Assembly (NCBI RefSeq): GCF_017348835.2
Contig: NZ_CP072315.1
From: Escherichia coli
Lineage (GTDB): Bacteria; Pseudomonadota; Gammaproteobacteria; Enterobacterales; Enterobacteriaceae
Reading direction: 5' to 3' (one strand)
DNA: 64,000 bases
Shown: piece after piece, positions 54,067 to 55,381 of the stretch
How positions within the stretch are numbered: position 1 is the first letter of the stretch
Layout: every line of letters starts with the position of its first letter
Notes under the pieces: model-generated
What the model saw: only the letters and a program-made list of their open reading frames with translations
The model's database searches: none
What the model was told of the DNA's origin: nothing
Made by a program: the position numbers and the translations under genes

Positions 54067-54579
54067 TTAATCTAATTCTTCTTGAGAATACCTCTCTATG
54101 GCTGAAGCAGTTGAAGATAATCTGCAACGTGGACAATAAGCATCATTTGTCACTGGCACAATGTATGGGCGTTTACATTTTTCGCAGGCACCTAGTTCTT
54201 CAATTTCTTTCATAGAAGTAAGGATTTCTATTATTTTATTAACTTCCGGTGCGCATACAAAGTATCCCAGATTATGAAGGACACTCATTATTCGGTTGAA
54301 GTCAATTTGCCGAAAACTCGCTTCCGGATTTATTGGATCAAAACCAAAATAGTTAACTGCGACATCAATAACAGCAGAAAAAGCTCGGCGGTTATCTGTG
54401 CGTTTGCTCCAGCCCCGGATACCTTTTTTGAGTTTTGTTTTTGCACCAGGCTCAAAATCGATATTTTCAGCAACATGATTACCGTACAAAATTCGTATTG
54501 TATTTTTATTTGCCCCAAGCGACATAGTCCTTGCTGCTCGCAATAGAGCATTAGCTTTTGTTTGATCGACCTTTGCCAT
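54067..54579 (-). CDS. FlhC-like transcriptional activator subunit (putative conjugation master regulator)
   Basis: 170-aa ORF; N-terminal ...LLRAARTMSLGANKNTIRIL... and C-terminal 4-Cys cluster CEKCKRPYIVPVTNDAYCPRCR resemble FlhC and its zinc site. Confidence 0.45.
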   Translation of the reverse strand: MAKVDQTKANALLRAARTMSLGANKNTIRILYGNHVAENIDFEPGAKTKLKKGIRGWSKRTDNRRAFSAVIDVAVNYFGFDPINPEASFRQIDFNRIMSVLHNLGYFVCAPEVNKIIEILTSMKEIEELGACEKCKRPYIVPVTNDAYCPRCRLSSTASAIERYSQEELD

Positions 54580-54580
54580 A

Positions 54581-55381
54581 TTAATAATCCTTTAACATAA
54601 CTTTATTTGTTAAAGTGTTGAACACATCCTGACGGTGACTGGTGAACATAGTGTCATAACGTAATAGTTCCATCAAATCATCACTAACTTTTCCTAACCG
54701 GATGTCAGCAGACAATTCATAAGCCCAGGCAAAAACTTTCGTTTTAAGTGAAACACTCTCTTCAATATGCCCTTGTGAGAAAGCAATTGTACGTGGGAAA
54801 AGAACGACATCGTTAATTGTTTTTAACGATGAATAACCAATGTCTTTAATAGCATCAGCTGTAGTTGGTTTTAAACCAAAGAAAACACTTACAAACTCTG
54901 GTGCGAGCATTGAGATAAAGAACACCTGCATAAAGTAGTCATTCTGTATATCAACACATTTAGAACGCAACTCATGAATCTTCTTGGGATTATAGATATC
55001 CACTGTACCATTCAGAAAAGTCACTTTTTCACCGGCATCGTAAATACCATAGTCAATATCATTTGTATCATATTCACGAATTACATTGGAATCACCGTCC
55101 AAGACCGCAGAAAAAAACCTCTCCCATGTAATTTCCTTTCCGAGTGTACGCGGAACCAAAAAACTACCTGGACGTGTTTCCACTTCAAAAGCTAAATCAG
55201 CGGCTGTACTAAATCCTTTCCCAAATAGGCGACGCTGGAGAAGAGGAGTCCCAGTTTGATATGCAGAAGATCCATGCACAGGCAATAACATTAAAAATGC
55301 ACGGTAACTACGAATAAGCGAAATCTCAGTGCGGAAAAGTTTACCGAGTAAGCTACGAGTTAAATTATCAGATTCTGACAT
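54581..55381 (-). CDS. hypothetical protein, likely regulatory partner co-transcribed with the FlhC-like gene
   Basis: 266-aa ORF immediately upstream, stop adjacent to the next start. Confidence 0.4.
   Translation of the reverse strand: MSESDNLTRSLLGKLFRTEISLIRSYRAFLMLLPVHGSSAYQTGTPLLQRRLFGKGFSTAADLAFEVETRPGSFLVPRTLGKEITWERFFSAVLDGDSNVIREYDTNDIDYGIYDAGEKVTFLNGTVDIYNPKKIHELRSKCVDIQNDYFMQVFFISMLAPEFVSVFFGLKPTTADAIKDIGYSSLKTINDVVLFPRTIAFSQGHIEESVSLKTKVFAWAYELSADIRLGKVSDDLMELLRYDTMFTSHRQDVFNTLTNKVMLKDY

Follow-up and report, generated by a model that had tools for sequence, protein, structure and literature searches.

The trhR-trhY operon of an IncHI2 plasmid: orthology to the R27 transfer activators and a predicted FlhC-like fold in TrhY

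The window analysed here, a 64,000-nucleotide stretch of DNA from Escherichia coli (contig NZ_CP072315.1), is part of an IncHI2 plasmid. On its minus strand it carries two adjacent open reading frames (ORFs) of 266 and 170 aa which, judged by orthology to the IncHI1 prototype R27, are trhR (54581..55381) and trhY (54067..54579), the first and second genes of the R operon of an IncHI2 conjugative plasmid; the genes are already known. We favor an explanation, at a probability of roughly 0.75, in which this is the IncHI2 R operon, TrhY would be an FlhC-type subunit, TrhR would supply an FlhD-like domain, and the two would form a heteromeric DNA-binding activator of the tra operons. TrhRY is probably a very divergent activator of the FlhDC/AcaCD type. 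The resemblance of TrhY to FlhC is predicted at the level of the fold and is essentially absent at the level of sequence; this predicted fold-level assignment, together with the probable FlhD-like domain of TrhR, is what is new.

Orthology to the R27 activators

The locus was assigned to the R operon because of protein identity, protein length and gene order. TrhR was 77% identical to R0123 of R27 over all 266 aa and TrhY was 85% identical to R0124 over 170 aa, both without gaps, and R27 has ORFs of identical lengths at the same position, indicating full-length orthology. The window and R27 share the order traI-R0121-traH/mobI, then trhR-trhY, then trhF-trhH-trhG, which places the pair on the IncHI backbone between traH(mobI)/oriT and trhF-trhH-trhG. 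The R27 order given in Tables S3/S4 of PMC7366339, namely traI (R0120), R0121, traH (R0122), trhR (R0123), trhY (R0124), trhF, trhH and trhG, maps one-to-one onto the annotated R27 locus (L003). Both trhR and trhY of R27 are tabulated as 'regulator' in the supplementary tables of that paper, and public sources use the name 'trhR' for proteins closely related to the 266-aa one. In pSTM6-275, a plasmid identical across this region, RefSeq labels both ORFs 'hypothetical protein'.

The trhR stop codon and the trhY ATG are 1 nt apart (TAA-T-ATG, 54577..54583, minus strand), and an AAGGA Shine-Dalgarno sequence lies about 10 nt upstream of the ATG, within trhR. This junction and the internal Shine-Dalgarno sequence fit translational coupling and also co-transcription, which an earlier note on this DNA had proposed for the pair. 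The same note placed the pair upstream of a traF-traH-traG-like operon, and this was borne out: after a gap of 593 bp downstream of trhY, genes of the TraF family (Pfam E 2.6e-51; thioredoxin-like), the TraH family (E 4.8e-57) and TraG_N follow on the same strand. They correspond to trhF-trhH-trhG, the F operon (47060..53473, minus strand), named from the annotation of the identical pSTM6-275 region. Because the F operon is driven from a promoter of its own, trhR-trhY forms an R operon apart from the trhFHG transcript.

According to PMC7366339 (citing Gibert 2013, 2014, 2016), activation of the transfer operons F, H, AC and Z in R27 depends on TrhR and TrhY jointly, F being its own operon and a target of this activation. 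The same paper states that overexpression of pBAD-trhRY induces P_F-lacZ (a fusion to the F-operon promoter) of R27 even at the non-permissive temperature of 37 °C, that H-NS silences the trhR promoter at 37 °C, and that HtdA counteracts TrhR/TrhY at the protein level. The transfer-activator function has thereby been established experimentally for the R27 orthologues, and the allele in the window is assigned to it by orthology. The earlier note had named the pair a candidate transfer regulator, which agrees with these data; the gene names and the literature had escaped it. The htdA gene is annotated in the IncHI2 plasmid p94-1. The title of Gibert et al. 2014 calls TrhR/TrhY-HtdA 'a novel regulatory circuit'. 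No Pfam match was obtained for HtdA or HtdF. In R27, the htdK gene (L015:16077-16640) shares an operon with htdA, and its product scored slightly over the cutoff for Whirly, a Pfam family of transcription factors that bind single-stranded DNA (24.6 bits vs. a cutoff of 23, E 2.5e-5).

A different role is suggested by a recent review (PMC11628540), which lists TrhY and TrhR among the mating-pair-formation (Mpf) proteins, citing Lawley 2002; the two would then be structural or assembly parts of the Mpf apparatus and not regulators, the class given to them at first for Tra1 of R27, and their genes do adjoin trhF, trhH and trhG. However, transcriptional activation of operons F, H, AC and Z in R27 requires the two proteins, whose expression from pBAD induces P_F-lacZ even at 37 °C, and no signal peptide or match to an Mpf family was seen in either. 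The reporter-fusion data already contradict the structural role, which we regard as very improbable.

The TrhY family was narrow, comprising IncHI1, IncHI2, a few intermediate clades and a Klebsiella branch at 32-36% identity. Klebsiella plasmids of the pNDM-MAR type carry a 251-aa and 174-aa pair at the same position, with 26-36% identity to TrhR/TrhY. In this Klebsiella clade an additional 180-aa ORF of no known family was found between the trhY-like gene and traF (L004:6530-7072; L005:6536-7078), and its place is taken by a non-coding spacer of about 600 bp in IncHI1 and IncHI2. A distant TrhY-like fragment (P0030) was uninformative, as it sits in a degraded remnant interrupted by insertion sequences.

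Predicted resemblance of TrhY to FlhC and of TrhR to FlhD

TrhY was modeled with AlphaFold2 from an 11-sequence alignment without templates, giving a predicted local distance difference test (pLDDT) score of 69.4 and a predicted template modeling (pTM) score of 0.61. The predicted structure appears to have the three-dimensional fold of FlhC. In addition, the C-terminus of TrhY contains a zinc-ribbon-like motif of four cysteines, C132-x2-C135-x13-C149-x2-C152 (54115..54195, minus strand). C132, C135, C149 and C152 (CxxC-x13-CxxC) were invariant in 8/8 full-length TrhY homologues at 32-89% identity (alignment A1), confirming the C-terminal 4-Cys cluster seen in the earlier note. Four cysteines in the same CxxC-spacer-CxxC layout were likewise invariant in an alignment of AcaC, SetC-like and FlhC proteins (alignment A6). 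When TrhY was compared by hhalign with eight AcaC, SetC-like and FlhC proteins, the Cys4 motifs were aligned with a score of 28.9 (P 0.0012), vs. 12.8 ± 2.8 for a column-shuffle null, indicating that TrhY shares the putative C-terminal zinc site of the FlhC family. TrhY would thus be a very divergent FlhC-type subunit with a helical N-terminal domain followed by a Cys4 zinc ribbon.

TrhR is likely to carry an FlhD-like domain, a view that we hold with moderate confidence. The putative domain spans residues ~140-207 (54761..54964, minus strand). It emerged when the TrhR family was aligned by hhalign with a combined FlhD-like profile made of the N- and C-terminal repeats of AcaD, diverse FlhD proteins and one SetD-like protein; residues 140-207 were aligned over 68 gapless columns with a score of 29.6 (P 4.2e-4). 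Column shuffles gave 12.0 ± 2.2 (maximum 17.8) and the reversed profile 11.7, so the observed score lay about 8 standard deviations above the shuffles, for an alignment that took in the entire FlhD-like core. Against 33 AcaD-like proteins, TrhR 145-207 was aligned to both AcaD repeats in a consistent register (P 0.009 and 0.1), with a score of 24.2 vs. 14.3 ± 2.4 in shuffles. A weak BLASTP match (E 0.006) joined TrhR 112-208 to AcaD 96-174, the part of AcaD that corresponds to the FlhD Pfam family. The AlphaFold2 secondary structure of this region consisted of a long helix (132-159), Pro161, three short helices (161-168, 172-181 and 183-188) and a strand (194-196), in an order that we take to be that of the elements in FlhD-type domains. 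TrhR would thus contribute an FlhD-like domain flanked by extra N- and C-terminal segments. An internal duplication of the AcaD kind was sought in TrhR and not found (P 0.49).

Several results weigh against these FlhC and FlhD assignments. The FlhC-like N-terminus claimed in the earlier note did not hold up: the N-terminal domain of TrhY scored 10.8 against AcaC/FlhC in hhalign vs. 11.8 in the shuffle null, BLASTP of TrhY against E. coli FlhC gave no match, and the Pfam FlhC family (PF05280) matched neither TrhY nor 11 family members even at E <= 10, while the same library scored AcaC at 31.8 bits and E. coli FlhC at 285 bits. The wider claim of FlhC-likeness survives on the predicted fold and the Cys4 alignment, despite this chance-level resemblance of the N-terminal sequence. 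Neither FlhC nor FlhD was found when NCBIfam was searched with TrhY and TrhR, or in single-protein and family-profile searches of PDB sequences. A TrhY-profile hmmsearch of 1.84 billion representative proteins returned, without annotation, 28 matches at E <= 0.001; none was full-length beyond the close IncHI-type relatives and none bridged to FlhC. Confidence in the TrhY model was only moderate (pLDDT 69), and the TrhR model was poor overall (pLDDT 59), with no FlhD found in fold searches that used it. The Pfam FlhD family (PF05247) matched neither TrhR nor 10 homologues, hhalign of TrhR against FlhD proper was not significant (P 0.2-0.28), and the N-terminal 130 and C-terminal 60 residues of TrhR matched nothing. 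The literature searched documents neither direct binding of DNA by TrhRY nor the formation of a complex.

A further point on the same side comes from a secondary source (PMC9598596), in which TrhR is called a membrane protein, at odds with a soluble subunit of the FlhD type. TrhR might then be an inner-membrane sensor or anchor acting with TrhY as a soluble zinc-ribbon protein, the two forming a membrane-tethered or signal-transducing pair with a ToxR/ToxS-like or anti-anti-activator logic, and the resemblance to FlhC would be a convergence of folds. The failure of fold searches to match TrhR with FlhD and its size of 266 aa, more than twice that of FlhD, are in keeping with this, as is its sole hydrophobic stretch, which covers residues 150-168 and averages 1.74 on the Kyte-Doolittle scale in IncHI1 and IncHI2. 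However, this stretch contains Pro and Glu, and its hydrophobicity is lost in divergent clades, where the maximum was ~1.0-1.2 and Arg/Lys occupied equivalent positions. It also falls on helices 1-2 in the alignment to FlhD-like domains. A buried pair of helices seems a better description of TrhR 150-168 than a transmembrane segment, and we consider a membrane-bound TrhR unlikely.

Tra promoters, dispersed palindromes and the host plasmid

By analogy with FlhD4C2, AcaCD and SetCD, TrhR and TrhY may assemble into a heteromeric DNA-binding activator. Also by analogy, this heteromer might bind near the -35 position and recruit sigma-70 RNA polymerase to tra promoters that have no good -35 element. 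The trhY-trhF intergenic region (53474..54066, minus strand) contains the F-operon promoter, P_F, with a putative extended -10-like element, TGCCATCAT, at 53509-53501 and no recognizable -35. This region was little conserved between IncHI2 and R27 except for a CGAGCTC-N-T7-8-N-TATGCCATCATA block about 30 nt before the trhF ATG. The TGCCATCAT element of P_F was common to IncHI1, IncHI2 and a fourth clade (L020), the Klebsiella clade having TGGGATGAT in the equivalent position. P_H contained a conserved CGGTATAGT. The architecture of P_F and P_H loosely fits the proposed activation near poor -35 elements. A consensus scan upstream of trhR gave a candidate R-operon promoter, TTAGCA-16-TG-TAAAAT (55558..55585, minus strand), which sits in a block nearly identical between IncHI2 and R27.

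The earlier note had suggested a search for a motif shared by the tra promoters, and none that was convincing emerged. The search took in 12 promoters of the F, H, AC and Z operons, drawn from up to three clades. De novo, nothing came up beyond an A7-9 tract with a weak CRT at its 5' end, and such A-tracts are common in IncHI intergenic DNA. When the 12 promoters and the P_F of the fourth clade were aligned on their putative -10 elements, most had a TTAYNCGA-like word 23 nt further upstream, worth only ~5 bits. By both methods, then, the F, H, AC and Z promoters showed no clear common operator, and this too counts against a directly binding activator.

A 13-bp perfect palindrome, AAAAGTNACTTTT, was dispersed through the window in 10 copies with at most one mismatch, vs. 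0.19 expected. All lie in the backbone half, at 42491, 43392, 45485, 52397, 55016, 55457, 55942, 59365, 60803 and 62533. Two R27 loci contained 16 and 12 copies vs. 0.5 and 0.11 expected, and Tra2 loci contained 14 (IncHI2) and 22 (Klebsiella-type); copies were also present in the fourth clade (loci beyond the window with copies: L003, L015, L016, L017, L004, L005 and L020). In 103 kb of IncHI DNA there were 20 perfect copies of AAAAGTNACTTTT, vs. at most one copy of every other 6-N-6 palindrome. It was not found in the IncC locus, in the SXT-like locus L010 or in 4/5 other AcaCD-type loci, the fifth (L009) having one single-mismatch match. Several positions were kept across IncHI1, IncHI2, the fourth clade and partly the Klebsiella type: ~80 bp ahead of the trhR ATG, ~190 bp ahead of mobI, within the trhR gene, and 28 nt into the trhH gene. 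As a TrhRY box the palindrome was set aside: none of the clades examined has it in the P_F intergenic region, and R27 also lacks it in those of P_Z and P_AN. It is therefore probably the operator of another conserved IncHI protein, or of only part of the TrhRY regulon. A literature search on AAAAGTNACTTTT found nothing.

Roughly six repeats of the AAAAGTGACCCTATG / CATAGGGTCACTTTT type, in direct and inverted orientation, lie in the mobI-trhR spacer (55720-55900). The AAAAGTGACCCTATG-type repeats are almost perfectly conserved between IncHI2 and R27 and share the half-site AAAAGTGAC with the dispersed palindrome. The cluster lies at what we take to be the position of the mapped R27 oriT.

The 2.8-kb stretch around trhR-trhY was 100% identical at the DNA level to hundreds of plasmids of 200-300 kb from E. 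coli, Salmonella and Enterobacter, and 936 records were at least 99% identical. One of the identical plasmids, pSTM6-275, was typed by MOB-suite as IncHI2A, MOBH and MPF_F. Divergent genes upstream of trhR comprise mobI, an ORF of unknown function, the MobH relaxase gene and traD. Between trhG and the HAD/SLT genes, IncHI2 has a gene for a 429-aa protein with an HNH-endonuclease motif (45590-46879, minus strand), and R27 has no annotated gene at the equivalent place. The G+C content of the region around trhR-trhY was 37-44%, and that of the transfer backbone was 37-48% vs. 56-62% in the first half of the window (1-36000), which holds none of the backbone palindromes. The high G+C and the palindrome-free state suggest that 1-36000 is an acquired accessory region.

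Comparison with R27, FlhDC, AcaCD and SetCD

IncHI2 plasmids are major carriers of mcr-1, extended-spectrum beta-lactamase genes and genes for heavy-metal resistance, and the TrhR/TrhY circuit gates their transfer by temperature. The genes are known, so the locus itself adds nothing new to plasmid biology, and the gain is mechanistic. If true, the fold-level link to FlhC and FlhD would group IncHI with SXT/R391 and IncA/C in a single regulatory family, which bears on predicting cross-talk with mobilizable islands that hijack AcaCD and SetCD. Our literature search found no paper containing both 'TrhY' and 'FlhC' and none placing TrhR or TrhY in a protein family; Gibert 2014 and Lawley 2002 lay outside the search, and an earlier mention is possible.

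The nearest known system is the TrhR/TrhY-HtdA circuit of R27 (Gibert et al. 2013, 2014, 2016, 2020), with orthologous proteins of the same lengths at the same position; the promoter block ahead of trhR is conserved as well. It differs in its backbone, IncHI1 vs. IncHI2 here, in the largely diverged trhY-trhF intergenic region, and in what follows trhG, which in IncHI2 is the HNH endonuclease gene. FlhD4C2 of E. coli (PDB 2AVU) is far more distant. Identity was ~10%, it controls flagellar genes and not transfer genes, the cysteine spacer is x16 in FlhC vs. x13 in TrhY, and FlhD has 116 aa vs. 266 aa in TrhR.

SetCD and AcaCD are the established FlhDC-like activators of SXT/R391 and IncA/C elements. 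Like TrhR and TrhY, they are encoded by two adjacent coupled genes in D-then-C order and are both needed for tra activation, and their C subunit has ~170-190 aa and a C-terminal CxxC...CxxC, as in TrhY. D-then-C order with overlapping or near-abutting stop and start codons was found in flhDC, acaDC (4-nt overlap), the SetD/SetC-like pair of the SXT-like locus (L010) and trhRY; the gene order and 1-nt spacing of trhR and trhY fit a heteromer whose D subunit is encoded just upstream. The acaDC loci of IncC and the trhRY loci of IncHI have MobI, the MOBH relaxase, TraFHG and an SLT transglycosylase in common, arranged differently. AcaC and AcaD were taken from an IncC plasmid located through TraH; tblastn with E. 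coli FlhC against plasmids failed to reach even AcaC. For TrhY against AcaC, BLAST gave a weak match (E 0.03) restricted to the zinc ribbon. The P values in hhalign were 0.0023-0.011 for the D subunit against AcaD-like proteins, beside the 0.0012 of the C subunit. A 2015 survey by the Burrus laboratory, made with SetC/AcaC and SetD/AcaD hidden Markov models, listed SXT/R391, IncA/C, SGI1-like, pAQU1-like and pAsa4 elements and not IncHI.

TrhR/TrhY could be a third, extremely divergent FlhDC-type lineage, such that SXT/R391, IncA/C and IncHI, all of them MOBH/MPF_F, would share one ancestral activator design, with HtdA as an anti-FlhDC-type factor like FliT or YdiV; we regard this broader reading as doubtful.

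AcaD of the IncC plasmid (202 aa, L008:18104-18712) matched Pfam FlhD at residues 106-179. The AcaD-type D subunits (~200 aa; AcaD and 32 homologues) contained two tandem FlhD-like repeats (N vs. C half, hhalign P 4e-12), of which Pfam annotates only the second in AcaD, and such subunits may mimic an FlhD dimer in one chain. Thus, AcaC and AcaD pass the Pfam FlhC/FlhD thresholds whereas TrhY and TrhR do not, and AcaD has two tandem FlhD-like repeats whereas TrhR has one detectable repeat and unrelated N- and C-terminal parts. The systems also differ in how they are restrained: AcaCD is repressed by Acr1/Acr2 and SetCD by SetR, whereas TrhRY is held in check by the anti-activator HtdA and by H-NS.

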